From: Podarcis liolepis
Lineage: Eukaryota
Direction: 5' to 3' (one strand)
DNA: 64,000 bases
Assembly: GCA_965112155.1 (NCBI GenBank)
Contig: OZ218100.1
Part shown: positions 3,301-61,454 of the stretch, piece after piece
Layout: each line of letters opens with the position of its first letter
Numbering within the stretch: position 1 is the stretch's first letter
The notes under the pieces: model-generated
The model's database searches: none
What the model was told of the DNA's origin: nothing
Seen by the model: only the letters and a program-made list of their open reading frames with translations
Translations under genes and position numbers: made by a program

Positions 3301-3986
3301 ATGCATAAGGTCAGTGAATATTAACTTCATTTACACTTGGCTGAGAATTGGCTGGTGTCAACAATAGAGGTTTAGATCCTCTGCTGAGCAGGGTTAGAAG
3401 CTGACAGAAAGCTGCCACTGAGGAAGATGGATGATCGTACTGGCTGACCTCATTCCTCCCTAAGTGTCACCGTTTGGGCCTCTTTTCTATCTCCACAACA
3501 AAAGACCCTCTCTGAGCTTCCCAGTGGCCTTCAGCTTTATTGGTACTAACAGGTCCAGACATTTTCATCGATTGGATTCTATACCTCTTAAACACAAGAG
3601 TTTGCCCTCTTTGGCTAGCCAAACCTTGGCACAGATGTCTTTTTATTTTGTAATTGCTTCACTGCTGTCTGTTGGGAAGGATGCAATCGGACAGGCAAAC
3701 ATCATGTCAACACAGAAAATGCTGCACCATTTATCTCAGTTTCCTAATGGCATTTTGAGGAAACTGATATGTGGCTTGACTGCAGAGTTTAACCATTTTA
3801 TAACTCATCGAAGGAAGTGTGTGTGTGCCTAAATAGACATTTTTTTGCTAAGACATTTTTTTAAAAAAAACAGAAGCAGTGACAAATAATTATTAATATT
3901 AATACTACTATGCACCCTGGAACAACCGTGCTTGGAGAGCCTAGAGACTGTAAAGAGATAGATCTGGGTTATAATCTTATATTGTA

Positions 3987-4218
3987 CAGTGGTACAGGCG
4001 CTTCAGGTTATAGACACTTCAGGTTACAAACTTCGCTAACCCAGAAATAGTACCTCGGGTTAAGAACTTTGCTTCAGTATGAGAACAGAAATCGCACAAC
4101 AGCGGCACAGCGGCAGCAGCAGGCCCCATTAGTTAAAGTGGTACCTTACGTTAAGAATGGTTTCAGGTTAAGAACAGACCTCCGGAATGAATTAAGTTCT
4201 TAACCCGAGGTACCACTG
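3987..4218 (+). mobile_element. Tc1/mariner (Tigger/pogo-like) MITE family A, copy 1
   Basis: TA|CAGTGGTAC...GAGGTACCACTG|TA. Small deletion in the left end. Same internal sequence as 8 other copies. Confidence 0.9.
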
Positions 4219-4856
4219 TATATAGAAGAACAATGTTATTTCCCTAGTGTTCAGGTAAAGAAACACTCACGTAAAATACTAAAACACGGCTTTGACATAG
4301 AACTTAATTCAGTGGAGGAACTCAATCATATCCATGATAAATTAGAAATCTAAAGCTGGATTCAAACATCTGTGTGCTGAGAATACCTAATTATGATAAA
4401 CATGGTAAAATGAAATTAAAGCCTTCAGGTATATCGCTGAATGAGTGAGCCCAAAACTATTCATATAGTTTTGGAATTTGTTTTTCTTATGTAGAAGCCT
4501 AGGTTAGAAACAATGTTTCCTATATTCCTAAATGTATTTATTTATTTTTTAAAAATTACCCTCCCCAATCCGGCACAAAAAACTAAACAAAAACATTTTC
4601 AGTGCAGAATCTGAGACATTTTCTCTGCTCGAGCATTTGAGGCTATCGCATGAAATTGGCAGAGCTTTCCCAAAATTGGTCATAATATAAAGCTAGGTTA
4701 GGGATTGCACAACCTCCATACGAAACCCTGAAAAAAAGCAACTGTTTTCTTTTGTTGATGACTGCTTCACAGGCCCAATGATTCAGTGAAAGGTTCCACT
4801 ATGTAACAGGGATAAGTTGAAATTCTTAACCCACCAATATTACCCTCAATTCTATA

Positions 4857-5098
4857 CAGTGGTACCTCGGGTTACATACACTTCAGGTTACATACGCTTC
4901 AGGTTACAGACTCCGCTAACCCAGAAATAGTGCTTCAGATTAAGAACTTTGCTTCAGGATAAGAACAGAAATCATGCTCCGGCAGTGCGCCAGCAGCAGG
5001 AGGCCCCATTAGCTAAAGTGGTGCTTCAGGTTAAGAACAGTTTCAGGTTAAGTACGGACCTCCGGAACGAATTAAATACTTAACCCAAGGTACCACTG
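4857..5098 (+). mobile_element. MITE family A, copy 2
   Basis: TIR CAGTGGTACCTCGGGTTA / TAACCCAAGGTACCACTG, TA target duplication. Confidence 0.92.
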
Positions 5099-7911
5099 TA
5101 TGAGGATTCTGTTGCAATAGAAACAATTGTAATGAGCATTCAAAAAAAGGGGGAGGCATAGCAAAACAAAATGAAATGATTTGGAACTGATGGAACACAA
5201 ATCACATGTGGCCCTTAGTCACAGGTAACACAGATAAATTATTAGGCTAACTGGATATATTTTTATCTTTGTTGCTATATATAGTATAGAGACAGTGTTA
5301 AATTCAATGTAACACAAAGATTTTTTTTTATTCTAAGATATGCTACAGTGATTCTGGGCCATCTACTTAAAAATAAATAAATCTTTATTGTGGTCCAAAG
5401 GTCCATAGAACAGTGACTTTGGGCCACGTAGTTAATGCTAACATATGTAAAGGACTGAACCACATGATTACTCTATATTCTCAGAACCAAAGAGATAGAA
5501 GTTACTGGAGTTAGTCACACAAGACATAGTGGATGGGTAATTTTTCTCGCTTCTTCTCTCCTGAACTGCACAATCTTTTGCAAGTTTTCGTTAATTATTA
5601 ATTAATACTGTGCTAATGGTTAATTGCATATATGCAATCCTCACCACTGAGTTATTTATTCTGCAAAGCTTTCACAAAATCAAATTCTTAGCTTTGATTT
5701 AGATGAATAAACTATATGCAGTTTAGACACAGCAAGGCATCTCAATTTCAGTATTTATCAGAGGTGTTCATGGGTCCCAAAGTTCTCTTTGCATCTTTGA
5801 AGTTCAATTTGTTTCCGAGTAGCTCTGCACTCTCTCTGCTTTATGTTTCAGGATCTGAGTTGAATACTGAAGAATACATATAACCTCTCCTCCTTTTGGT
5901 CAAAGTGGATAAAATTTGCAGACATAGGGGCCCCAACTGCAAAACAGATTAAGCTTGCAAATTTGCAGAAAAGTATGATAAGGGACTTTTTGTGGTTGAA
6001 GTAACAGGGGTTAACACATTTCCATAATCTGTAGTAGTGTCATACTTTCAAGGGAAATAGTGGGGGATTTTGTATACCCTTTTTAACCTTAACATAATTT
6101 GCAAGTGACCGAATGGTGTGCATTCTTGCTTGTACATTTTACTTCGTTTTATTTTTATTTTATTTTTTAAAAAATGAAACTCCACACCAGCCTTTTGAGT
6201 ACTAAGCCTTACAGGCCTCTAAAACACTTTATTACTGGTATTATTTATTAGATTTGTTAGTCACTTTATCCTGCCCAAGGCAAACCAAAGCAACTTACAA
6301 TGTGAGGGTGCTTAGAATACTGCCTGCAGAGTTCTGAAGACCTGTGAGCTGTTTATGTCAAAGCAGAACTTAGGGTTTTTTGTTTTAAACCCACCTAAGT
6401 TTCAAACTTTTCTTTTCTTAAACCATCCACTGCGGTGCCTTAAAACAAATTTTAAAAGCCCACAGGCAGTATTTTGGACAGCTTCTTGCAAATCCCCTGG
6501 ACCTGGAGAAACAGAACTATATAGGAAAACATAGCTATTCTGTACAGAAACAGCAGAGTGACACAAGGCTTTGTGAGGGGGCCTGATCTGATTTGGAGGT
6601 GTTGTTAGTTACATAGTGCTTTGATTCACGGAGGGAGGAAAAAGCCACCCCCCGAAAGAAACACCCCACATACTTTGTTATTTGAACTGCACAAAGTGCC
6701 TAAGAGTGCATGCAATGATCCCTGGTACTCTTGCTTTATAAAACAATTTCAGAGAACAAAATGCAGAATACAAACCTATAGTTACATTTTAAAACCATAA
6801 AGGTCACTTTTTTAAAACGTCTAATGCAGCACTCCCCCAGCTTCTTGACATTTTTGTTTGATAAAAAGTTGCAAGATCAGGTCCTCACACTTTTATCAAC
6901 TGACATATAATTAGCATAAAGGTGCCAACTCCTTACTAAACCAGGGGATTATCATTTGCATGAATAATTCAAACAGACCTGGTGAGGTAGGCAATTCATA
7001 AGCATTACTTTCTCAAATGTAATGAAAAGGAAGGTGGTAACTCAGTGTTTGAATACATGCCTTGCAAGCGTAACAACCCCCAATTCAATCCAGACATTGC
7101 TGCACAAAAGATCTATTGAAGCAGAGCTAGGAAGCACTTTATCCCTCAGACCCTAAGGAGCTCAGGGTGGGCAGTTAAAAACTACAGAGATGAGCTGAAC
7201 CTAGGATAAAGCAGCTTCTGATATCTTTCTTTAATAAATATCTTACAAGACCTACATTTTCTATAACCCTCCATATTATGGTGATGACACTCATGAGCTA
7301 TCAGCTCGCACAAACTGCTCACATGAATGCCAATGCAGGGATGATGCCCAATACCAGGATCCAAAGAAAAATGAAACTTGTTCCATGATTCCAATGAGGC
7401 TTTAGAAGTTGTTCTCTTAACAACTCCCCATGTTGCATACCAAACTATTTTCGAAACTGAGGAAAGCATTCAAAATCCAAACATTTTGTATACATAAAAT
7501 GAGTAAGCCAAAGCCTAACTCCTGGAAGTTAAGGCTGGCTTTTACTTCCTAGGATCAAACAGGGAAAAGGTGACATCATGGGGTTACTATCACACACCCT
7601 CCTGAGACGTTAGCAAAATAGCTTCCAAATGGCAGATCAAAGCCTACCAGTAGATTCCAAGGAAATTCCGGTGGGAGGGGAAAAGAAGAGGTTACTGGCT
7701 TAGGTTGCTCAGTACTATGTTGCACTAATAGCTGAAGGCAGAAAGATGGGAAAATTCTGGCACATTCCAAAGCACAAAGACCACTGACAATCTGCCCAGA
7801 AGTATAATTAATAAAACCAAATAAAGCATTTGAAATTACCACCCCAGAACACTGTTCTGATTTCACTGTAGAATGCATGAAGAACTGACCTGACTGGGGA
7901 AGGAGAAAGTA

Positions 7912-10428: not shown

Positions 10429-10651
10429 TGAGGTTCGTTCTTAACCTGAAACTGTTCTTAACCTGAAGCACCACTTTAGCTAATGGGGCCTCCTGCTGCT
10501 GAAGCGCCGCCAGAGCACGATTTCTGTTCTCATCCTGAAGCAAAGTTCTTCACCTAAAGCACTATTTCTGGGTTAGCGGAGTCTGTAACCTGAAGCGTCT
10601 GTAACCTGAAGCGTCTGTAACCTGAAGCGTATGTAACCCGAGATACCACTG
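10429..10651 (-). mobile_element. MITE family A, copy 3 (one end missing)
   Basis: Reverse-orientation copy. Ends ACCACTG|TA at 10651. Three tandem TGTAACCTGAAGCGT(C/A) units. Confidence 0.88.
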
Positions 10652-28534: not shown

Positions 28535-31524
28535 TTATATAGGTATATAGCTTTTGCATGTTATTTTATTATGCTATTTTCTGAAGTTCTTCTCCCCTCT
28601 CTCGCAACCAGATAACAGTACACTGAAGTGAGTGCCAAAGAAATTACTCAACACATTTTCACACCTGATAGCTATTCTCTGAATGGTTGATCAACTCATC
28701 CCCCCAGCTTAAAAAATAAAATAAAAATATATCTCCCCACCCCCTACTGCTGTAAACACACTGTTCAGTTTAGGACACAAGTCTGACTGGGAGCCATAGC
28801 ATCTGGTTTGGATCGATCCTTGGCCCTATGGGGGTCACACACTGTGATCAGGAGGAAAGGAAAGAAGACTTGGGACACCTTCAATAGTGCGAATCTATTA
28901 AACATTTTTAAGGTGTCCCAATAATTTTTTGTTCTCGCCAGTGACCAGTGCATCCTACCCAAAGCCTGAATGTGCCACAAGACTCCTTTCTGCAATATCT
29001 TTTAACAATCTAACCAAGAGCCCCTTTGGCATTGCCAGCGGGGACTGTGTGTCACTTTGCACATGCTCAGAGGCGCTTGCTTGCTACTTTTCCCGCACCA
29101 GGCCTGGAAAACAGCCGAAGCCTTTACTCAGAAGCAAGCCCCATCTGGTTCAGTGCAGCTTAGCCTCGAGTAACAAGCGCAGCCGAAGCCTCAGAGCCAA
29201 ACAAGCCCCGAGCACAAGCGAGTTATGTTTTGGAACTCAGCCCGGGGAACTCGTCTGGCCCGGAGGAAGGAAAAGGGAAGCGGAGCATCTCCTCGGGGCT
29301 CCATCCTTCCCTCAGGCGACTGAAACAGAAGAGGCATCTCTGCTCCGAGCACCCAGGAGAATGCCGCCTCCCTCCCGGGCTCAGGAGGCGAGCAAGACTT
29401 GCACCTCACGCAGCCGTCCCCGCTCAGCTAATGAAGTGACGCGGCGGGGGCAGCCCGTTCCCGCGCTTCTCTTCCTCCTCAGCGAGCGCCTTCGCAAGCG
29501 CCCCCTTTAGCCTTTTACGCGGAGTTCCCAGGCGGGCAGCCGAGCTGAGGCGGCGGGATTTGTTTCCAGGGAGCGGAGAAGAAACCCCCGTCCGCTGGCC
29601 GAGGGGGAGGCTGCGACCCTGGCTCTCCCTCCCTCATCTCCATAGCCGCTGAACCCGAGTCCCCCTTGCAAACGAGCGTCAGGAAGTCGTGGGGCTGGCT
29701 GTGCCTTCCCCCCTCCTCCCCACAGGATTGTTTTTCTCTTGCCCCCCCCTCAAACCCCACGAGGCCCCCCTTCTTTTAAAGGTGGCCTTCATACACACCA
29801 CCGTGGACGATGAAACCTTTTTTTTTTTTTAGTGGCCGGCGATCCTCCCCCCCCGTTCTTCTCGGACCAGAAGGGGGACTGAGCAGGGTCTCCAAAGTTG
29901 GAGAGGAGTTTTGCGAGGCTGCCCCAGGTGAACTCCAGAGATCACACCACACACACGCGTTGGGTTTTTTCTCTCTCCCCCCCCCCTCCAGTCAATTCAT
30001 AAATCATGACGCCCTTCTGGACACAACGGGGTGGCTGAAGTGACACCGGCTTCGGTCTGTCCGGTGTCCCTCCCTCCGCCCCTCCAATAGGGCACCGCGT
30101 GAGGAGATGCGGGCTTCTTTCCCACCCCAGATGCCTCCCTCTCGGGAGCCGGGGCACCGCTGCCCGCCGCCTCCCCTCCCCTCCTTATCCCTTCGCCAGG
30201 TTTCCCTCGGCGTTTTCCGCCTTCCGGATAAACTTTCCACAGCCTGCCGAGCGAGAGCGCCTGATTTCGCCCTCTCTCCGCCCGCTCTCCCTCCTGCCTA
30301 GGTACAGGGCACGTTTCCACCGGGAAGAGGAGGACCCGTCCTTCCTAGCTCCGACTATAGGCTAAGCCATGCATTTTACCTCATGCCTATAAACTCAAAA
30401 AGCGAGGATGTATGGTGGGGGGGGGGCGTCCTCTCCCCCCAAAAGACATTATACCCCCTCGAACATATATGTTCACAGAACCTCACATTTCCCGCGAGGC
30501 AAGGCAAGAGATGTATTTTACATCTCGTGGGGAACCGTTTCCTTTCGCAGGTCTGCAAAACTACGGTTTGTAAACCACGGAGCAGGTTTTCGAAGCCCCC
30601 GGTTGCCATTCAAGAGGGAAGACGCCGAGGAAACAGATTAGCTCCCTGCCATACACAGAAGCAGCCTATGGATTATGCACAACAGAGGGCGCGGGTGGGG
30701 GGGGGGGAGGCAAAGCACATCTCGTGAAAATGTGCACACAGCTAATACACACACGCACGGAGACTGCGTATGTGATGCAAATAGTTCTACATGAGGCTGC
30801 TGCTGCTCCGCCTGCTCCCTCTCGGACTGAACGCCGCCGCTCCGAGAGCTGCAGATCCCGCTCTCGATACGAAGCGGACAAGTAAGACTTTCGGAGGAGC
30901 TGCTCTAGGTGACACGGGCGACTCCAAAGAAGCGCCCTCGCTCCCCACCCCAAGGGATCACATCCTCCGTCCCCAAACTCCCCTGCAGTCATGGAGTAGC
31001 TTCATTCCTCCACAAACTCCGGCGGGGGGGGGGCGGAATCTTTTCATATTTTATTATGTCGGTGGTGGGGCATCGAGGCGGGGTAGAATTGCACTGCTTA
31101 TGCTATCAGCCACCTTTTAAGTTGCCCCCTAATCGCGATAGAAGAAACTCCCCAGCGGTCCTACCGATATGCGCCCCCACCCCCTCGCCAGCCCTGCACA
31201 GACCTGAAACCATCCCAGGGCTTTGCATCACGTGCACACCTTACAGCCCTAAATCCTGATAGGAAACGCGCCCTTCTTTACAGTCACGCAGACACAATCG
31301 GGGTGCAATGGGGATCCATTATCATCTATGAATGAGGTGCTCGCTCCCTTGCCCAGGACTCGGCACGGGGCTGCGGGTGCCCAGCGCTGCCCCTTTCATC
31401 TCTGCTGGGCTCGAGAGGGAGAGGGGAGAAGGGGCTGCATGCAGTTGCAATCTCGGGGAGCAAGAATAAACACTCCAGGAAGCCCTTGCAACGAGATAAA
31501 CTTTTGTTTTCGGCATCGCCTTAC

Positions 31525-31621
31525 CTTCTTTCGCAGCCTGTGCCTCCCCCGTGTGTGCAAAGCGAAGCAGCCAGACGCAACACAAAATAATCCATGAAGG
31601 GAGCCTACTTTGAAAAACCAT
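31525..31621 (-). CDS. EPHA7: Ephrin type-A receptor 7, coding exon 1 (signal peptide), 97 nt
   Basis: ATG at 31621 in strong Kozak context (gcaccATGG). Translates MVFQSRLPSWIILCCVWLLRFAHTGEAQAAKE, recognisable as the EphA7 N-terminus. Phase-1 donor AAG|GTAAGG at 31525/31524. Confidence 0.97.
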
Positions 31622-31890
31622 GGTGCATGAGGTGTTTAAAATATATCTAATTACATATATATTCGAGAGAGAGAGACTGTGCGCTGGTTGCTGTTGCTCC
31701 CGCTGCTGCCACTCGGTGGGGATTAAAGAGCTTGTTCTGTAACGTGTTTTATTTCGCAGCGCTCTTGCCCAGAGCTCGCTCTCTCTCCCCGGCTGCCTTC
31801 TTCCCCTTGCCCTACTCGCTTTTTCTCTCCGTATTTGCTGCCTGCGAGTCTCCGACTGCAGACCGGCCGCTCGCACCACACTCCAATAAT
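31622..31890 (-). other. EPHA7: EPHA7 5' UTR (upstream boundary approximate)
   Basis: Contiguous with the ATG. Contains GGTCTGCAGTCGGAGACTCGCAGGCAGCAAA and CTCATGCACCATGG, which resemble the mammalian EPHA7 5' UTR as recalled. The TSS cannot be fixed from sequence alone. Confidence 0.6.
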
Positions 31891-31950
31891 ATCAATAGGC
31901 GCGGGGGGGTGGGTGGGAGGAGGAGGAGGAGGAGGAAAGGGGGCCGGGCC
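31881..31950 (-). promoter_or_regulatory. Candidate EPHA7 core promoter (CCAAT motif, G/GGA tract)
   Basis: CCAAT at 31883-31887 (+), followed by GGGGGGGTGGGTGG(GAG)n and GC-box-like runs about 260-330 nt upstream of the ATG. No TATA box. Confidence 0.5.
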
Positions 31951-32246
31951 AAAGCCGGGGAGAAGAGCCCGTCCTTCAGAATGACTGGCAGGAGAGCCCA
32001 GCCTACGAGAAAGCCGGATTCCGAGTTCTGGAGGCACGGCTGGGCAATGAGTCGCTCGGACGGCGGAGGCGGAGCGAGGCGTCTCAGCCATTCAGCGGCG
32101 GAAGGTGTCAGGTTGCAGCTAGTCCCGGATTCCCCTTCTGGTGCTCGTATTCTTAGCGCTCGCTGGCGGGAGGCGGGCGTGGGTCTGTCTGAGGGTCAAG
32201 CTGCACATTTAAGTTAAGCGGACTTTAAAAGTGCGAGGCTGGAGCT

Positions 32247-33464
32247 GGCACTTTTTTTAAAAAAAGGAATAGCAGCTGATGAGCAGCTGTTACAAGGGAG
32301 GAGATCAAACTGCAAGGAGCAGCCTCCCCGTCTTCCCTTCCCCTTGCTTTGCGCTTGCAGCAGAGTTGGAAAGGAGACCTGGCAGAAAGCGGAGCGCCTC
32401 CTCTTCTGAACTCCGCCGCTTTGCCTGGGGTGCGGTGCCATCCCGAGCTCCTCGTTCTTCCGCATCCCCTCTGGGCACTGTGGCAGGGACAACTCGGCCC
32501 ATGGGGCTGCCTAGAAACAAAATGCAACCAGTCACCTCTGCCAGCCCCGCTCCCTACCCCTCCAGGAGGTGCCCCAGGCAGGGTTGGGCGTGGAAAGAGC
32601 AGCCAGCTGAACCTCTGGCTGGCTCACCTGCACTCTTGGTGGGGCAGTGATTGGGTCCCAAAAGGCCCAACCTTCCCTGCGAATGGGAGGATGAATGGGC
32701 TACTCCTATAAAGGGCCATCTTATTTTCTTGGCTGCCTCCCTCTGCATGGCCTTAATGGCCACACAAAAGTTGAGTGAGCAGGCAAAGATGGTGGCTGGT
32801 CCTCCAGTGAACAGTCAGTGCCCTGTTGTGTTCCCTTGTTCCTCTCTGAGTGGCTCTGGCGGTCCCAATCCTTCCTGCTGCTGCTGTAGCAGCAGCCAGT
32901 CCAAACTTGCAAGGGTGAATGGGCAGGTTCAGAGCAAGAAGGCGGCTGAATTATCACGGGCAGCAGCAGCCAGCATTTGTCCAATCCTTGCTACTGAGAA
33001 ACAGAAAATGAGCAGTTGTGGAGACAGGAGCTGCTTCTGCCAGAAATAGCCACGACCTCCTGTCTCACTGAAGCACAGAAGGAAAGATAAGGTTCACTCT
33101 CCACCACTGTGCTGCCCAGAGGAGGATTTGGAGAGGGTGTGTGAACTGGCAGAGGTGGCTGCTTACATTTTCTCTCTAGGCAGCACCATGGGCCAAGTTT
33201 GTGCTGACAGGTTCTCCAAAGAGAGCAGAGGTAAGAGCAGCCTCCAGTTTCTCTACCTTGAATGCTTCCCCAGCAGACTTCAGAGGAGGAGATGCCTTGT
33301 CGGGTAGGAGTGGGTGTTCCTGACAGCAGGGAATCTCTCTTCCTCCTTTCCAGCTTCTGTTGCAGGGCAGGAGGAGGGAGGCCAGGTTGCTGTTGCTGCT
33401 TAATCTTCACTCCTTACTAGCAACAGCTGCTGATGGGCTGCTTTTCCTTCAAAGTAAAAGTGGC
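32247..33464. repeat. Long degenerate inverted repeat upstream of the EPHA7 promoter
   Basis: 32491-32544 matches the reverse complement of 33146-33199 at 47/54 nt without gaps. Further colinear blocks lie outward to 32247 and 33464. Confidence 0.85.
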
Positions 33465-36032
33465 AATGTTAAGCATGTTTTCTAAAAAGCATGCACACTA
33501 TAATGCAATGTGTGTTGTTTGCTGCTGCTGCAGCAAACATGGAAGGACTTTTCCCAGCAAATAATAGACACAATCTGGTGTTCAATTTTTTTAAGCTGAT
33601 AGAGTGAGATTTGAGCGGATTTTGTTCCCAAGTTAAAGCCACTGAAACGGCTTTAAATAAAGTTCCTTGAATTATCTAGAAAACAACTTACATAAGCAAA
33701 CTCTTGTAGCATACCCTAACTCTCCCTATCTCCCCACTTTCCTGAACTTTCCCAAGAAGAACTCTCCACTCCCTTCAATTTCAGCTTCTCAAAAAAAGAA
33801 AAGGGAAAAAAAGATTATTTATATTGTTTGATATGTGGATTTGGCTCAATTTAAGACTTTTCTGTGGATCTGGGTCAAACTCACAGCTTTGAAACTAGTG
33901 GAAGTGTATGTGTACAGTACTATGTGCATATAGTTTAAAAAAAGAATCACCAGTTTTTCTAATTTTAGTCTTTGCAGATTGCAGTGTCCTTTTTGGCATA
34001 CAGAATAAAAGAACAAGAACATACAAATGAAATATTCTGGTGGTTTTTCTTTCTTTTTAAAAAAAGTGATAAGAAAAAACTATGTAACACGATACCGCAT
34101 CCGTTTGATCTGCTGGCTAAAAACATCTGCAATAAAACATTTGGTTTTGTTTCTGAAGCAGCCATTGCAAATATAAAACAACCTCTTTTGATTGTATGTA
34201 ATTCAAAACCTTTGTATACTTTGCAATTCTTTAAAAAGTAAAATTATTAACATTGGCAACCTTTTCAGTTTTATTACATTGCCCCTTTACGCCTTTCCAC
34301 AGCAGTTATGAAGAAACCAGTCAGACAACATAAATCTACTTGCTGTTTGGCTCCCCACCCCCTAACACACAACCAGAAACAAGAACTAATCGGATAAAAG
34401 TAATTTTGTTGTTTACAAAGGAAAATAAAGTTGTCAGTTTTTAAAAGTTCACTCCAGTGATGAAAAGCATGCTTACTCTGCAAAATCTGATTGTATTGGG
34501 GATCTTAGCAGTGCCCTTTGTAGGAATGGAATATATAACAAAATTAATTATTATTTTTGTCAAGAATTGCAAAAAGTTAAAGAATAGTTGTTTTCCACTT
34601 TGGAAAAAAGTTTGAAACCAGAGACGATTATATGTAACTGAAATGTGAAACTTAGTAATGAATTACTAGTAATGATTTTTAGAAGAAATATGTTTCTACA
34701 TTTAAAAGGATTTATTGTTGCATTTTGCTATGAAACCCAACCTTCAGTCTGTGCCCTTTTAAAAGATACTAAATGGCATACATGTTTATATCTTTGAAAC
34801 AAATGTAGTCAACTTGTGTAAACTAGAATTGCAGTTTTCTCTAACTGTAATATACCTTCACACTGTGGCTGGAGAAGTAAACAATTATTGGTATATAGAC
34901 AATGTTAGCCATACTCAGAGTAGACCCATTGAAATTAATGGGCATCAGTAACAGTATAATTTAGTGGGATACAACCATAGGCTGCGTTTTTACTATTATA
35001 CACAGGCATACTAGAAATATGCCTTTTAGTGTGTATAGGATATAACAATATAAAATACAATCCAGTCACTTTTAAGTCCACATGCTTAACTCTCCCACTG
35101 AATTCAATGGGACTTAAATGTGCTTACTTATATAACTGTTTACAGATTTCAAACAAAATCTCCGTTTACAAACTTTTCAATTACTGCAGTTATGTTTAAA
35201 TTAATACAAATAGAAAGTTCAAAGTGTTGTACCTGCCTTATAGCTGCTGGATAACTTAAGACACATTAAGAATACTATAAATACTTTCTCCCATTAAATT
35301 GGAGACTACATATGTTGAAATAGGATAGCACAAGCAGAATCACAGGCACGAGTAGAATTACTGCTTTATATTGCTCTTTATCTCCTCTGTGTGTGCATAT
35401 GTATTTGTGGAGGAGAAAAAACAACACTGAACTGGCCTAATCCCTGCCCTAACTAAGCATTCTTATCAGGAAGTGATTCCCAATGTAATCAATATTTCTT
35501 ACTCCTGAGTGAGCATGGTTAGGGTTTCGGTTTAAGTGTAAATTTGGTGGAGAACCTCAGGTCCAATACAACTCTCCAGACTTCTCTGTCTGGACTTTGG
35601 ACCTTCCCCTTCCTCCAGGCTACATCACTTACTGGCCTGTTCTATGCCTTCCTTAAGTGGTTTTGATTGGTGTGTGTTCTTGAACTGTGACAATTATTTT
35701 GGTTTGCCTGGGCACAGAGGGCTTATGTGTTTAGAATCATCTGACTTTTGCACGATTGGAATGTAGCCTATGGTACAAAGGTAAAGAGTCACACTTGTTG
35801 CTCCACCCACTTTACCTCTGGCCCCACCCACCACCAGCATTTGGCCCCAGATATATACTCACGAGACAATGGGGCCCTTGGGTTGAAAGGAGTCCTGGGG
35901 CAAGTAATTTTGCACAATTTAAGGCACCATTTTGTTATTTTACATCCTTTTCATAGTATGTTTGGTATTATAGTAGCAGTGACTCCAACATTGGTGGGAG
36001 AAGCACCTTGTCCTAAAGAGGGGAAGGAATCT

Positions 36033-36650
36033 TAGGGCTGGGCAATATGTGGTTTTCAACATCGTGATGTATCGCCAGCTAAACACTGTGATATATTGAT
36101 ACAGTATATCAAGTTGTCTGAAATAAGAATTGAACGATGTAGAGGCGAACAGTAGGACTGGGCAATACAATGGTACCTCGGGTTAAGAACTTAATTCATT
36201 CTGGAGGTCCGTTCTTAACCTGAAACTGTTCTTAACCTGAGGTACCACTTTAGCTAATGGGGCCTTCTGCTGCTGCCACCGCACAATTTCTGTTCTCAGC
36301 CTGAAGCAAAGTTCTTAACCTTAGGTACTATTTCTGGGTTAGTGGAGTCTGTAACCTGAAGCATCTGTAACCTGAAGAGTCTATAACCCAAGGTACCACA
36401 GTATCTGGTTTTCAACATTGTGATGTATCGCCAGCTAAACATCATGATATACCAATATATCAGTGTCTGAAATAAGGATGAAGCTATGTAGAGGCCTTGG
36501 CTGGCTTCACGGTTTTCCTCATGTTGTCATTGTTGCATAGCATACACACACATCATGATTCATGATATATTGCCAGGTCAAAAATTATTAAACCAGTATC
36601 ACGATATGAACTTCAAACTGGTTTTGGACAATATATTGATATATCCCCTA
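36033..36650. mobile_element. hAT-like element with duplicated left end, interrupted by MITE A
   Basis: Starts TAGGGCTGGGCAATAT and ends ATATATCCCCTA. Repeated GATATAT/ATATC subterminal motifs. The left segment (~115 nt) is present twice. Confidence 0.65.
36168..36401 (-). mobile_element. MITE family A, copy 4 (nested in a hAT-like element)
   Basis: TA|CAATGGTACCTCGGGTT...AGGTACCACAG|TA. Confidence 0.9.
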
Positions 36651-37341
36651 GAAAGGATCTTACAGCAGGTAGAGCTAGATACACTTTCTACTAAGCAGCA
36701 GAGACTGGTTTCCTTGGTGCATCAGATAAACTTAGAAGGAGCCTGAGTTCAGGACAGTTTGAGAAACACTGTTTGATCAAGTATAACTTCTTATAACAGC
36801 AATGAAACTTCACTAGATTCATTCCCTATGATGCTGTGCATTATTCTAATAAAGCTCCATTCCAATCGTCAATTTGCCGACCATACAGCAAGCCACAGCC
36901 CCATTGATTTTAATTAGCTGTACACTTCACTCATGATTAGTAGTGGGTTGCTGTCCTTAGCAATGTCACTCTCCCAAAATATATAAAATGAAAGAAGGGG
37001 ACAGAATAAAAACTTGCTGTTACTGGAGCTGCACCAACAATGTACCACAGTGATCCCAGTGCTGTATAGAATTTCTGTACATATCATGGAAATTGCTTTA
37101 ATTGTAAGAGCCTGACAGAGGTAAGCACTTTTTCCAAAGATTTATTTAATAACATATACCTTGTGCCTAGTTATCTGCTACTTAGGTTACTGACCAAGTC
37201 TGCATTGGCTTCAGTTCAGCAGCTCTTCAGCATCAAAGGCTTCCACTCTGTTCACTGCTCCTCTGGTAGGGATAAGCGTTCTAGGTGTTGTTATAGATAC
37301 AACAAAATGTTGCACAAGTAACATTAACGTACCTAAGGCTG

Positions 37342-41278: not shown

Positions 41279-41506
41279 CAGTGGTACCTCGGGTTACAGA
41301 TGCTTCAGGTTACAGACGCTTCAGGTTAGACTCCGCTAACCCAAAAATAGTACCTCAGGTTAAGAACTTTGCTTCAGGATGAGAACAGAAATCGTGTGGC
41401 GGCAGTGGGAGGCCCCATTAGCTAAAGTGGTACCTCAGGTTAAGAACAGTTTCAGTTAAGAATGGACCTCCGGAACGAATTAAGTTCTTAACCCGAGGTA
41501 CCACTG
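41279..41506 (+). mobile_element. MITE family A, copy 5
   Basis: Perfect TIR CAGTGGTACCTCGGGTTA / TAACCCGAGGTACCACTG. Flanked by TG on both sides. Confidence 0.92.
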
Positions 41507-41733
41507 TGATACTTTGTATTGGAATGATAATGTGTGACAACCAGAAGGCAGATGTATGTGAAAGGTAGTTGACAATATTTTACGATGCTTATGACTACCC
41601 ACACACAGAGTGAGTGGGAAGCAGGATATAGCCCAGCAGTGACCACCTCATAAGGCCTAGAGAAGGGAAAGGCTGGTGAATTCTGCACAAGTAGGGTGGG
41701 CAGGAGCCATTTTGGGCAAGAGCTTATGTTTGG

Positions 41734-50604: not shown

Positions 50605-50750
50605 NNNNNNNNNNNNNNNNNNNNNNNNNNNNNNNNNNNNNNNNNNNNNNNNNNNNNNNNNNNNNNNNNNNNNNNNNNNNNNNNNNNNNNNNNNNNNNNN
50701 NNNNNNNNNNNNNNNNNNNNNNNNNNNNNNNNNNNNNNNNNNNNNNNNNN
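50605..50750. other. Assembly gap (146 N)
   Basis: Run of N. Confidence 1.
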
Positions 50751-52760
50751 TGTGATTAGTAGCTTGTCTTGCTATGGGGAGTTGATAAAATAAAGCATTT
50801 TTGAATTAATTCTGTATATCAAAAAAATTGTTTTGTTGTTGTAAAATTCAGAAGACTAAGTTGAACAGTCTGATTAAAAGAGCCTCGGAATGATCCAAAC
50901 CGATGGGGCTAAATTGGCTCAAATGAAATGACTGCATTCTACTTTAACAAATTTATAGATTGGACTGGCATGGTTTCAGAATGCACATTTACCATACAGC
51001 AAGTCCTTACTTCTAAGCAAATGTGCATAGGATTGGGCTGCTGGGCTGCAATCCTATGCATACTGAGCTGGGTGTGGGCACAACTGCATGTAAAGGAGCT
51101 TACCTATGAGTAAGCATGGGTGGATCCTATTATTATTATTATTATGGGTGATTTCAAGGTGCTGAGTGAAACAATGGTTAAATGTGCTTGTTGTTCAGAG
51201 CGTGTATTTCCACATGAGAAACAATCTGTACACCTATAAGGATTTTTTTAAAAAAATCTTTTGCTTTTTTGGAATGTGTTCCCAATTAGTTTTATAAAAA
51301 GAAGGCACTCATCTGGACTAGGAACAAGTCCCTTCTCACCATCTGTTATGGATTTTTGTTTTGAGTTATAGACCCCACGTTCCATTAAAGAACTAAGTTT
51401 TAAAACACTGTTATAAAGTGCTAATATTTGGATAACCCACAATGGCCAGGTAAGCACAACTTCACATGAGAACTGGGATCCGACCACACATAAAGCTTTC
51501 AGCCCCTTTGGGAACACACACACATATATAGATTATGTGCTAATTATTACAGGGTAATTTACAAAAATGAGAACACAGGCTGTGTACAGACAACATGCTA
51601 TTTAAGGCTGAAGCAAAAAGTCAAATGTGGTTAAATTAGGATGGATGATGACAATTAATGTAAGCAAAAAAATTGGCTTGGGCTTAGCAGTTAAGGGTCA
51701 AATTAGAAACTGGGCTATAGTCCCATAACATATTTATCGGTTGTAGGTGAACAGAAGGCCTGGTTGTATTCACAGGGCAATCTGTGAGCAAACTTACTTG
51801 GGAGTAAGCCCCGCAGGAACTTAGGTTAGAATAGAATGGTGCTTTCAGGCTATTTTCCCCTCTCAAAATGAAAATGAATCTGAGCTGTACAGAAAGAGGG
51901 GCTCTAAACACCACAGGCATTTTTAAATTGCTTACCCACCACTTTGTAATACATAGAAGGATTCAGTTATGAAATTATTTAAGAGAACTAAAGAATAGGC
52001 TTGTTCAGGGGTTCTAAACTCCTTGCATGCTTTTCTTGCTTAGCAAGGAAGGTCAGGGCTAGCATTCATGGAGTTATTTGGTGTGGCACATGTGTATATG
52101 ACTCTGCCCTTCTTCTCCACTGAGTGTCTAGGTCAATGCCTGAATGGAGCTTAAGTGCAAAGCTGATTCAGCAGAAGTAGCTGTGTGAGGAAGTTGTACA
52201 GAGGCAGAACACTTATCCTCCGCTGGGAGTAAGCCCATACAACACATGCTTCCAGTCCTATTGATTGCAATGGAGTGTTAGGTTAGACACAACTAATTTG
52301 TCCCTTAGCTTGAATTCAGCTAAACCTGTGCGCTAATAGAAGTGAATGCAAGGGCTCCTACTGGTGCACTAGAGCTTTCCTCCCCTCCCCGCTGCCTGTG
52401 GTCCCCACCCCTCCCCCAAATCTATTCTGGAGGGGTTGGGAGAACTCCCAGAATAATGTGAATGGGGGATGAGGATAGGAGGGATTGTTCTGTCTGGCAA
52501 GCAGAAATACTTGCGATGATGAAATGATCATATTATAGTTATGCTGAATCCCCCCCTTTAATTCCAGTGGGGCAAACAGCCTGACCTTAATCATACTTCC
52601 CACCCCCCACCCCCAAAGTCTAGTCTTACTGATTTTTAGTGGGATGTATGTCCAAGGAAACATGGCTAGGTATGTTGCAACCGTCTTTATCTGAACATGG
52701 ACCAGTCCCAGATGTGTTTAGCGAAAGCATGTGGATTTGAAAACTGCTAAAAGTAAAATA

Positions 52761-53002
52761 CAGTGGTACCTCGGGTTAAGTACTTAATTCATTCTGGAGG
52801 TCCGTTCTTAACCTGAAACTGTTCTTAACCTGAAGCACCACTTCAGCTAATGGGGCCTCCCGCTGCCACTGCACCGCCACTGCGCGATTTCTGTTCTCAT
52901 CCTGAAGCAAAGTTCTTAACCTTAGGTACTATTTCTGGGTTAGTGGAGTCTGTAACCTGAAGCATATGTAACCTGAAGCGTATGTAACCCAAGGTACCAC
53001 TG
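52761..53002 (-). mobile_element. MITE family A, copy 6
   Basis: TIRs present with TA target duplication. Reverse orientation. Confidence 0.92.
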
Positions 53003-53927
53003 TATGTTTATGTATAATTGTGCCAGATTTCACTTGAAACTGTTTTGCTTATTTCAGTGATTTTTAGGCTGCCCTTTGGAGCCAGGCCATCACAAACTCT
53101 ACTAACTTGAGCCTCGTCTATGCTCAGCCTTGGTACATCCAGCAATTCATGTACCACCCTCATGTATTCATGCATAAGGCAGAATCCATGTGGAGGGATC
53201 CAAGATCCTGGCATGGGATCAGCAGCCTAGTTATGTATTCCAGTTTGATTGCACTGCAACATCAATAGCCATTACTGACCCTCACTATTGCCCTTGCCAG
53301 CATTATACTTGTTTAAAATTCCAAAAGAAAAAAAAAAGTATGCACACAAACTAGCTTAAAACTACATGGTTTAATAGCCATGTATATTTCTTACCCTCAT
53401 CTCCAAAACAGTGCTTTTTGGTTTCTTTTCATCTTTTGTTTAATCAACACATGTCATTAGCATATTCTCCACTCCAGTCATCCAGCCATTACTGAAAATA
53501 TTGAATCATCTGAACACCGGTGTAGGCCTCTCTTAGACACCTCATTTAATAATTCCTGCCAACTTGACAACCAGCCATTAGCAGTTAGAGAGGGAGAATA
53601 ATTTGCACTGAGTAATTTATAGGATGACTTTTACCTTTTTATCATTACAAATTGTTTGTGAGAAAAATAAAAGTGTCATCTAGAGTTATCCACTGAATAA
53701 TCACTTGGGCATCTACTGGTTTGCAATCACTGGGAAAATTCCGTATACAGATTTCTTCTTCAAGCAAAATAACCTTAACGGTGGTCTTTTAACCAAAGGA
53801 CATGTTCTTGTTTGTTATTTGTTAAGCAATATTGTTAAGCAAGAGTGCATGTGAAATATACTTATAAGGTATCAATTCTATATTCACTCACTTGTGAACA
53901 AGCACCATTGTATTCAATGATTGAATC

Positions 53928-58506: not shown

Positions 58507-58547
58507 ATGTGTGAAAGTTCTAGTATAACTCCACCACTAATACACCA

Positions 58548-58781
58548 CAGTGGTACCTCAGGTTACAAACACCTTGGGTTACAAACACTTCGGCTTACAA
58601 ACTCCGCTAGCCCAGAAGTAGTACCTCGGGTTAAAAACTTTACCTCAGGATGAACACAGAAATTGCGTGGCAGTGGCAGTGGGAGACCCCATTAGCTAAA
58701 GTGGTACCTCAGGTTAAGAATGGTTTCAGGTTAAGAACAGAGCTCCGGAATGAATTAAGTTCGTAACCAGAGGTACCACTG
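58548..58781 (+). mobile_element. MITE family A, copy 7
   Basis: CAGTGGTACCTC...GAGGTACCACTG|TA. Left flank is CA. Confidence 0.9.
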
Positions 58782-58794
58782 TAATAGCAGTATT

Positions 58795-58993: not shown

Positions 58994-59068
58994 CCTCAGG
59001 TCAAGAATGGTTTCAGGGTAAGAACGGACCTCCGGAATGAATTAAGTTTGTAACCAGAGGTACCACTG
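58994..59068 (+). mobile_element. MITE family A, copy 8 (right-end fragment)
   Basis: Matches the last ~75 nt of the family and ends GGTACCACTG|TA. Confidence 0.85.
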
Positions 59069-59227
59069 TATTATGGCAACAATGACATGTAGCAGAATAT
59101 ATCCACCACCTGATACAGCCAGTGGAGGCTCCTCTGTGGGGCAAAGTGGGGCACAGTCCTCCCAAGATTCTGAAACCGCCCCAAACCTCCACAGTCATAG
59201 CCCAGTCTTTCTGTTTTCACCCAAATA

Positions 59228-59453
59228 CAGTGGTACCTCGGGTTACAGACGCTTCAGGTCACAGACTCTGCTAACCCAGAAATAGTACCTCGGCTTAAGA
59301 ACTTTGCTTCAGGATGAGAACAGAAATTGCACAATGGCGGCACGGTGGCAGCAGGAGGCCCCATTAGCTAAAGTGGTGCTTCAGGTTAAGAACAGTTTCA
59401 GGTTAAGAACGGACCTCCAGAACGAATTAAGTTCTTACCCCGAGGTACCACTG
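59228..59453 (+). mobile_element. MITE family A, copy 9
   Basis: TIRs present with TA target duplication. Confidence 0.92.
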
Positions 59454-61454
59454 TACATTATTAATACATTTACATTGACTGAGAGGCTCCCTAGATGCTT
59501 CTGCCTATCTCCTCTGCTTAGCCATTCAAAATAATCACTACCATGAGGTCACGCCACCCTCATCTCCAGCAAGGTCACCCAGGGACCCAAGGTCATAGAT
59601 GAGCAGGTACCTCTCCTGCAGGTCACTGCTGCATGAATAATGGAAGCCAGGTATATACACTACACAACTCTGCCAGTCCCCATGCTAATCACGACTAGGC
59701 CAGAGAGGAGGGTCAGCGCAGAGGGAGCTCACAAAACCAATAACAGAAGGCCTGTAATATTTCTTCTCTAGAGTACCTCCTGTTTTTCTTTGAAGTTCCT
59801 ATTTGCTGGCAGATGACAGCTGATGGATGAAGTGCCTGATATATTCCATTCTTCTTTGTCTTGTGATTTCCCAATTTGCTTAAAATACAGATCTCCCTCC
59901 TTCCCGGCCCGTCAGCTTCTCTCAAGGCAAGCTCTGCTTTAAGTATGAACCTCAAGCTAACTAGAATTTCTCATGTGTGCTGACATTTTGTACCCACAGT
60001 GTCACAGACAAAAATGGTGGTGACTGCAGAAATGAAACTAGCTACTAAATGTTTACAAATCGTGTTTGTGCAGAAAACCACCTTTTCCCTCCTATGAAAA
60101 AGTCAACATGAAATCTACAGAGGCTTTTTCCACTCGAGGAAATTGTAGGCACATGTGGAATCGATAACGCATCTCCCTGCATGCATGTCTGTGGTTTGCT
60201 TTTATATATATCAGCAAAATTCTCTTCATATGCTACAATAATTTTCAATTAATCTGCTTTAAACTTTCACTTTTATGTAATCTGACATACAAATCTTGTT
60301 ACATGGTTCTTTTAACGTTAGTCAGGATGTTCTACTTTATGAGATCTTGACCAAGGAATATTTATGTTGGATGGCTCTCAGCCAATAATGCACCTTTTGT
60401 TTCATAAAACTGCACTGTGAATGGTTTTAATAGGTGCCTGCATTGAACGGTGAGTGAAAAAACAGCGGCTGGGTATTTTCTTCAGCCAAGTTGCTGTCTA
60501 GTTTGAGGTGAGAAATAGCACAGAGTGCGTTTTGTGGTCTCAGACCAAATTGAAATTAAAGACCTAAGAGAATGTTCCTGGTGAAGCAGTTCTGAAATGT
60601 GAGAGAGCATGTAGACCAAAAACCATGAGAAGAGTGCCATGAAGAACAATAGTTTTGCTGATTCCGTAAGGCTAACGAAAATCCCCTATTTACGATAGGA
60701 TGTAAAGAACCCATAGCTCTCATTTAAATCAACAAAGGATGCTATGCCTCATAGCCACCCAGATGGTATTTAGACTCACATGGGATTGAGCTCATAGATG
60801 GGATTCAAGGATTGTTCCCATATCTTCATCAGAACTAAACTCAAACTAAATGGGAAATCTCTAAAAAAAAATGTGAAGTTTAACCTTACATTGAATCTGT
60901 GGGCTTTATCTTCTGTTACATCCCATCAACCAAATAGTCATATTTCAAATGCTACTTCTTATTAATGATGGTCTTATTGGTGTCGTCTTCTTCTTCTAAT
61001 ACTACTTCTCAATGCACACCTGCACAGCTACAGATATAGGCTTTCAATAAATAATGCTTCTGTGTGTGCTGCTTCCTTGAATGGGTACAATATGTGGGCT
61101 GGACTAATTGCCCCAGTGGGGATGGTATGGGAAAGGGATAATTAGGCACAAATGTGTGTGTGGGGTGAAGCAGCAAGAGAGGTGGTGACTGGCAGTGTAA
61201 CACACAGTGGGAGGTGGAGGATCAACAATGGTGGTGGATATGGGAAACAGTGATTGCCAAGGAGGTAACAAACATCTCTTTTGTTGGCCTCTTCTGTAAA
61301 CTGCTTTAAGGTTTTATACAGTCAAGCTGTATATAAATTTTATGAAGCAAATCTCTCTCTCTTTCTCTCAACTCCACCCACTCTAACTCTCTCACGACTA
61401 TTTCATAGCCATCATAGGAAATTGCATTTTATGAGGAATTCAAATTCTGTACCT

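Follow-up and report, generated by a model that had tools for sequence, protein, structure and literature searches.

NuwaII (PHIS) DNA transposons are defined by a C/TNA/G target and by terminal inverted repeats (TIRs) that start with GG (Han et al. 2015, PMC4482050). PIF/Harbinger proper has a TWA target, and the painted turtle element NuwaII-1_CPB is the Harbinger-2_CPB of Repbase; in the accessible portion of that paper, the TIRs measure 13–46 bp, lengths mostly from autonomous elements, and none of the 12 host species is a squamate (PMC4482050). Harbinger insertions are reported to alter untranslated regions in sea kraits, which are squamates, and the available part of the same report gives Harbingers as absent from solely terrestrial vertebrates (PMC8437027). 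For Anolis, the accessible text of a further report counts under 10 Harbinger copies (PMC3014272). It is well established that transposons can be exonized as untranslated exons (review, PMC7786948).

Here we describe an inverted repeat in a 64,000-nucleotide stretch of Podarcis liolepis DNA (assembly GCA_965112155.1, contig OZ218100.1), hereafter the window. The repeat lies a short distance upstream of an EphA-class receptor gene that we take to be EPHA7. EPHA7 is an axon-guidance receptor. The repeat belongs to a dispersed family. We consider it probable that it arose when a non-autonomous PHIS (NuwaII/Harbinger-type) transposon inserted once, long ago, and that it was most likely incidentally exonized in a relative.

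The element resembles NuwaII in its C/TNA/G target, GG ends and inverted ends, and a non-coding NuwaII member of 1149 bp, NuwaII-1_ADig, has been described. Unlike NuwaII, its arms are ~350 bp long, roughly ten times the published TIR length, and ORFs are absent, a comparison that covers lengths and coding content (PMC4482050). With Harbinger-Snek of sea kraits it shares a 3-bp target and short non-autonomous derivatives, but Harbinger-Snek is young and abundant, whereas the window family is old and apparently low-copy (PMC8437027, available part). Chapaev3 of Anolis is likewise an old lizard DNA transposon with a 3-bp target. We rejected this class, whose TIRs start with CAC and whose targets are TWA in the accessible account, whereas the ends here start with GGG and follow C-TNA (PMC3014272). 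As in other transposon exonizations, pre-existing splice sites of the element were recruited into a non-coding exon near a transcription start. In contrast to the Alu, LINE, LTR and MIR cases in the available part of the review, both palindrome arms lie in consecutive exons, and splicing would close a hairpin (PMC7786948).

As a repeat, the element is ordinary, and repeat libraries may already contain the family. A literature search, mostly at the level of titles, found no paper describing the element, a spliced leader upstream of EPHA7 in lizards, or lizard NuwaII. The family points to old NuwaII/Harbinger-type non-autonomous families in an apparently terrestrial lizard. What is new here are the GT-AG junctions in one run from a relative, through which the right arm becomes an exon spliced to the left arm. 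Because one arm of a palindromic element can supply the donor and its counterpart the acceptor, one splice can build a long double-stranded RNA. If the spliced RNA reaches EPHA7, transposon symmetry would have led to translational control by a simple path.

Layout of the inverted repeat

The original prediction had described a degenerate inverted repeat of ~1.2 kb abutting the EPHA7 promoter. All four of its reverse-complement blocks were present, and we reproduced the identity of the inner 54-bp blocks (47/54, ungapped); in the outer pair, 32264–32303 matches the 40-bp block of the right arm at 32/40 positions; the two shorter motifs sit inside the gapped arm alignment. The arms are therefore real, but the extent had to be revised. 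Two arms of ~350 bp each surround a non-palindromic spacer of ~600 bp (Table 1), and the left end of the element is at 32193 rather than 32247. Between the arms, 230 of 311 aligned columns were identical (Jukes-Cantor distance 0.32, gaps ignored). The outer arms gave an alignment score of 487, as compared with a shuffle maximum of 207.5 (0/300 shuffles as high), and the part between the two main blocks was also significant (0/300 shuffles). A permissive alignment had suggested a full 1.2-kb palindrome, which was ruled out by the shuffle test of the spacer: its two halves are not complementary (115/300 shuffles score as high). That is, because the spacer halves do not pair, the repeat consists of ~350-bp arms and not of a 1.2-kb palindrome. 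The right end is eroded near 33525, where it runs into a CTG repeat and becomes unreadable. An Rfam scan of 30000–37000 returned three matches at E 0.23–0.87, all far below the gathering score.

The adjoining gene encodes an EphA-class receptor on the minus strand, with its ATG at 31621. Its exons 2–5 measure 65, 670, 156 and 336 nt, and exon 3 matches Eph receptors at up to E 1.7e-109. A run of N at 50605–50750 of the window has no bearing on the inverted repeat.

Table 1. Features of the element, its flanks and the associated exons and introns, in window coordinates
Feature	Position	Strand	Remarks
Coding part of exon 1, EphA receptor gene	31525..31621	-	
Next exon after intron b, through left arm toward promoter	32120..32510	-	covered to edge of compared stretch
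Left flank C-TGA, fits C/TNA target	32189..32192	+	right-end duplicate not recognisable
Whole element, ~1.33 kb, likely non-autonomous PHIS (NuwaII/Harbinger-type) DNA transposon	32193..33525	.	right end approximate
Left arm, begins with family end motif	32193..32544	+	CpG observed/expected 0.48; long tree branch
Inner 54-bp block, left	32491..32544	+	carries minus-strand splice acceptor 32511/32510
Intron b, 656 nt, GT...AG	32511..33166	-	removes spacer; unspliced contigs too
Spacer, non-palindromic	32545..33145	.	weak match to G000:C3:66.39 Mb copy only, 1/4 copies tested
Right arm	33146..33515	-	CpG observed/expected 0.04
Inner 54-bp block, right	33146..33199	-	carries minus-strand splice donor 33167/33166
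280-nt exon wholly inside right arm	33167..33446	-	X18 record 5
Outer 40-bp block with CAGCTG, family consensus	33410..33449	-	starts at minus-strand acceptor 33447/33446
Intron a, 3713 nt, GT...AG	33447..37159	-	
Upstream single-copy exon joined to right arm	37160..37262	-	X18; 5' boundary inferred, perhaps internal

A dispersed family and its probable transposon class

No similar repeat had been recognised elsewhere in the window, and within the window this holds. Genome-wide it fails, as the arms match at least 14 other loci, one of them itself palindromic. A genome search with the whole inverted repeat found six other loci at E≤2.2e-5, and a search with the right end of the element found four further loci. 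We built an arm profile from ten arm ends (the window and seven loci with long arm matches) and scanned it over 31 sources, such that copy numbers are lower bounds. Besides the sources it was made from, which match by construction, the profile matched seven loci outside its training set (L015, L067–L070, L112 and L130; E≤1.3e-4), and gave no match in L031–L036, L056 and nine stretches beside the window. Among the long-arm loci, both arms fall within ~810 bp in the C17 copy; at C9 there is one end, with the inner block present in each orientation. One full arm and two partial arms 2–3 kb inside make up the C3:66.39 Mb locus (L062:5400–8920), all three pieces falling within 3.5 kb; the remaining four loci each show a single arm in ~9 kb. 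A pattern search with the E-box block gave 11 matches, but its six new loci all failed the profile (6/6) and were excluded from the counts. When the inner right arm was used as a DNA query, it retrieved nothing but itself; the method skips diverged copies, and hence this implies no rarity.

Locus L015:1422–1554 (G000:C1:82.31 Mb) holds a ~120-bp palindrome composed of two terminal family segments only. A separate repeat of ~245 bp, SINE-like by its size, has nine copies or fragments in the window that are 79–94% alike (3985–4223, 4854–5101, 10430–10625, 36164–36404, 41279–41511, 52757–53005, 58547–58786, 58994–59073 and 59226–59458); one copy interrupts the C9 family member.

The arms begin with the end motif GGGYCAARCTRCAC. 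A pattern search for this motif gave 23 matches against 1 in the control, and the sibling motif gave 115 against 2. We examined 52 motif loci, comprising all 23 and 30 of the 115, minus one duplicate. TNA stood directly before the motif in 25 of these 52 loci (background 0.076, p 7e-15). C-TNA made up 16 of these 25 flanks (background 0.23, p 1e-5). Seven of 21 candidate second ends had at most two mismatches; TNA came next in 7/7 of them and TNAG in 6/7. Exact 3-bp duplications were found at three of the 21 candidates, L112 (365 bp), L130 (1381 bp) and L133 (236 bp), which belong to sibling families and not to the window element's own, although L112 and L130 also match the arm profile. Ends starting with GG occur at the left end of the window element and at both ends of the sibling elements, whereas the window right end is degraded. 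The shared end motif spans ~16–19 bp, with complementarity reaching ~350 bp. The window copy has C-TGA on its left, which fits a C/TNA/G target; at its eroded right end no duplicate of this flank is recognisable.

Only 9 of the 25 TNA flanks were TWA and the other 16 were TCA or TGA, and PIF/Harbinger sensu stricto was rejected on this ground. Judged by its target and ends, the element likely behaves as a non-autonomous NuwaII (PHIS) transposon. When it inserted, its two long arms would have been nearly identical, with decay setting in afterwards. A DDE transposase and its Myb-like partner, each since lost or still unrecognised, may have mobilised the element in trans. The genome contains at least 12 DDE_Tnp_4 matches; eight were extended to 10 kb, and none of these eight had family ends or a profile match. 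Five family copies contained no transposase remnant, the only hits coming from a repeat-derived frame.

Seven DDE_Tnp_4 matches (L073–L079; G000:C2, C13 and C14) have open frames of 234–489 aa and no family ends nearby. They are possibly domesticated Harbinger transposases; in the available part of the Anolis report, five similar Harbinger ORFs without ends are described as domesticated (PMC3014272). As a further observation, a GGGYCAAACTACA end and C-TNA-G flanks are common to several sibling miniature elements of ~240–440 bp (L107–L136, among the 115 matches), which look like further NuwaII/Harbinger-type families.

A probable spliced minus-strand RNA and its predicted hairpin

Seven organisms share words with the stretch, and we compared the sequence of two of them (runs X8 and X18), both of which carry the element. 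Four runs were compared over 32120–33760. Run X18, from related organism G, consists of assembled contigs (5 records, depth 6–10; RNA by guess) and is the one run with splicing. Its contigs cross two canonical GT-AG junctions, each seen in one contig: 37160 to 33446 and 33167 to 32510, both read on the minus strand, which is the sense strand of EPHA7. Because both junctions are canonical, RNA is the likely source of the X18 contigs. One record skips the 656 nt of intron b with CT..AC ends; the intron starts with GTAAGC and ends with TTTTGTTTCTAG. Another record leaves the stretch at 33449, and its 102-nt loose end maps uniquely in the window, from 37163 (0/100 shuffles), the target being single-copy DNA. 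The RNA may start further upstream, because a candidate acceptor at 37264 has its AG where the loose end would stop. Run X8, which is DNA and comes from organism E rather than organism G, has no spliced joint. Spliced and unspliced X18 contigs coexist (depths 6.2 and 7.3), and contigs inside intron b (depth 4–7) suggest either a retained intron or precursor RNA. The raw RNA runs X23 and X21, of which 12% and 6% were covered, gave 0 reads and do not speak to expression; among indexed runs, none from RNA was listed as containing the stretch.

An acceptor-like word at the position of the first acceptor was present in 10/10 arms. By comparison among arms, the first acceptor is an ancestral word of the family; the 54-bp blocks supply the donor and the second acceptor. 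X18 record 1 extends 1808 nt beyond the compared stretch, as against 1822 nt for a spliced path to the end of exon 5, a weak hint of continuity into the EphA gene.

Upstream of the Eph gene, the single-copy positions 37160–37262 form an exon of a minus-strand RNA that is not annotated, and more upstream exons are possible. In the right arm, plus-strand positions 33180–33230 hold, by symmetry, a strong candidate acceptor, a Kozak-context ATG and a donor-like AG/GTAAGA 51 nt later.

The joined window exons were predicted to fold at −233.8 kcal/mol (z −4.4 versus 40 shuffles). In this predicted spliced fold, 109 of 280 exon bases pair to the next exon, and a 13-nt loop lies at the junction; the junction stem includes an unbroken 14-bp helix and buries two good-context ATGs. 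The unspliced element is also predicted to fold arm to arm, a prediction made without shuffles. The plus-sense RNA folds better (z −8.7); selection acting on the transcribed strand would favour the reverse. In run X8 the junction stem carries substitutions at two sites, 32493 and 33184, and we saw no compensatory change. The original prediction had offered a hairpin-forming divergent promoter RNA. This idea gains some weight, yet the RNA observed is a spliced minus-strand one, sense to EPHA7, and not a divergent plus-strand RNA.

If the leader extended as far as the EPHA7 ATG, it would measure 1272 nt or more and contain 11 upstream ATGs. A long leader with many upstream ATGs makes a poor messenger. 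Because the hairpin shows no sign of selection, the exonization is most likely incidental. In the one run from the relative, a minus-strand RNA that starts at least 3.7 kb further upstream uses three splice sites in the arms, and splicing out the spacer joins arm to arm into a predicted imperfect hairpin of ~540 nt. If it continued into EPHA7, the spliced RNA would bear several upstream ATGs. We picture a minor upstream transcript with incidental exonization, in which the hairpin would be a by-product of the element's symmetry.

Divergence of the arms and rival explanations

Patchy retention of blocks, including the CAGCTG E-box, had been taken as a sign of constraint or of gene conversion between the arms. 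The arms are not evolving as a pair. Their local score to each other was 525, whereas the right arm scored 587 against C17L and 558 against C3aR, and the window arms did not group in trees of either the outer or the inner part, with low support at most nodes. Arm-wide conversion is thus unsupported. The block around the E-box is family consensus: the right-arm 40-nt block matches C3aR and C8R, both found via this block, at 36/40 positions versus 32/40 for its own partner. In run X8, the whole stretch lies on one contig with 37 differences, 33 of them listed. The listed substitutions number 16/352 in the left arm, 9/601 in the spacer, 3/370 in the right arm and 4/243 in the flank. The two arms differ (p 0.002; 0.055 on the assumption that the right arm took all four unlisted changes), and the right arm does not have significantly fewer substitutions than spacer and flank together (13/844, p 0.42). 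CpG observed/expected falls from 0.84 in the promoter through the left arm to the right arm (Table 1), a gradient suggesting that the left arm was absorbed into the CpG island.

The 54-bp block is a mild outlier to the general decay and contains two of the three splice sites; either a short conversion tract or local constraint is possible there. A conversion tract that homogenised the block from arm to arm would need no function. It would account for the 47/54 identity between the window arms, which exceeds the 32–41/54 found with seven other arm pieces and was reached in only 1–5% of 300 simulated uniform decays under each of four settings (p ~0.01–0.05), and for the letters around a CTAG word that both window arms have and other arms lack. 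Such shared letters need no conversion, however, because the arms of one element start identical. Pairs of arms from different loci also reach 45 and 49/54 in their best window, subject to ascertainment, and the window arms stay ungrouped in the inner-block tree, whose support is low. We regard this tract as unlikely. A further reading is that the transposon was exapted, with splicing of intron b acting as a switch that assembles the hairpin and upstream ORFs and thereby tunes EPHA7 output, in either the EPHA7 leader or an overlapping non-coding RNA. All three splice sites do lie in the two best-kept blocks, the predicted junction stem would bury its two ATGs after splicing, both spliced and unspliced contigs exist, and the overhang of record 1 comes close to the length of the spliced path. 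Against this stand the better fold of the plus-sense RNA, the two uncompensated stem substitutions in X8 and the left arm being the fastest-changing part, and we judge exaptation quite improbable. The most specific version, in which the remains of a palindromic NuwaII transposon would serve as a splicing-gated hairpin (its start codons buried in a stem of ~540 nt, in the EPHA7 leader or in sense RNA over the EPHA7 promoter) and so set EPHA7 output in the lizard lineage, strikes us as a long shot.

The origin of the symmetry was also weighed. One alternative is that the same repeat inserted twice, independently and in opposite orientations; another is that regulatory DNA was duplicated locally in mirror image. 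In their favour, five of the seven long-arm loci show a single clear arm end within ~9 kb, and the spacer matches only one of four copies tested, weakly. Both arms, though, face inward from the end motif, and this arrangement recurs at C17 and partly at C9; in a family that looks low-copy, two insertions would hardly land 600 bp apart by chance. Matches on many contigs are beyond what a local duplication can explain. We therefore hold both variants to be very unlikely. The mirror-duplicated cis-regulatory module of the original prediction finds no support, as the arms, E-box block included, are family sequence. Its own refuting case, two independent and untranscribed high-copy insertions, does not describe the locus either, which looks like one low-copy insertion that is apparently transcribed in the relative. 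What stood of its foldback transposon co-opted next to the promoter is the origin, borne out by the dispersed family, the end motif, the TNA flanks and a second palindromic copy; the co-option we judge improbable.

The probable single insertion is also old. Divergence between the arms is ~14 times the difference between the window and X8, and because of this ratio the insertion must be much older than the split of these two lineages.
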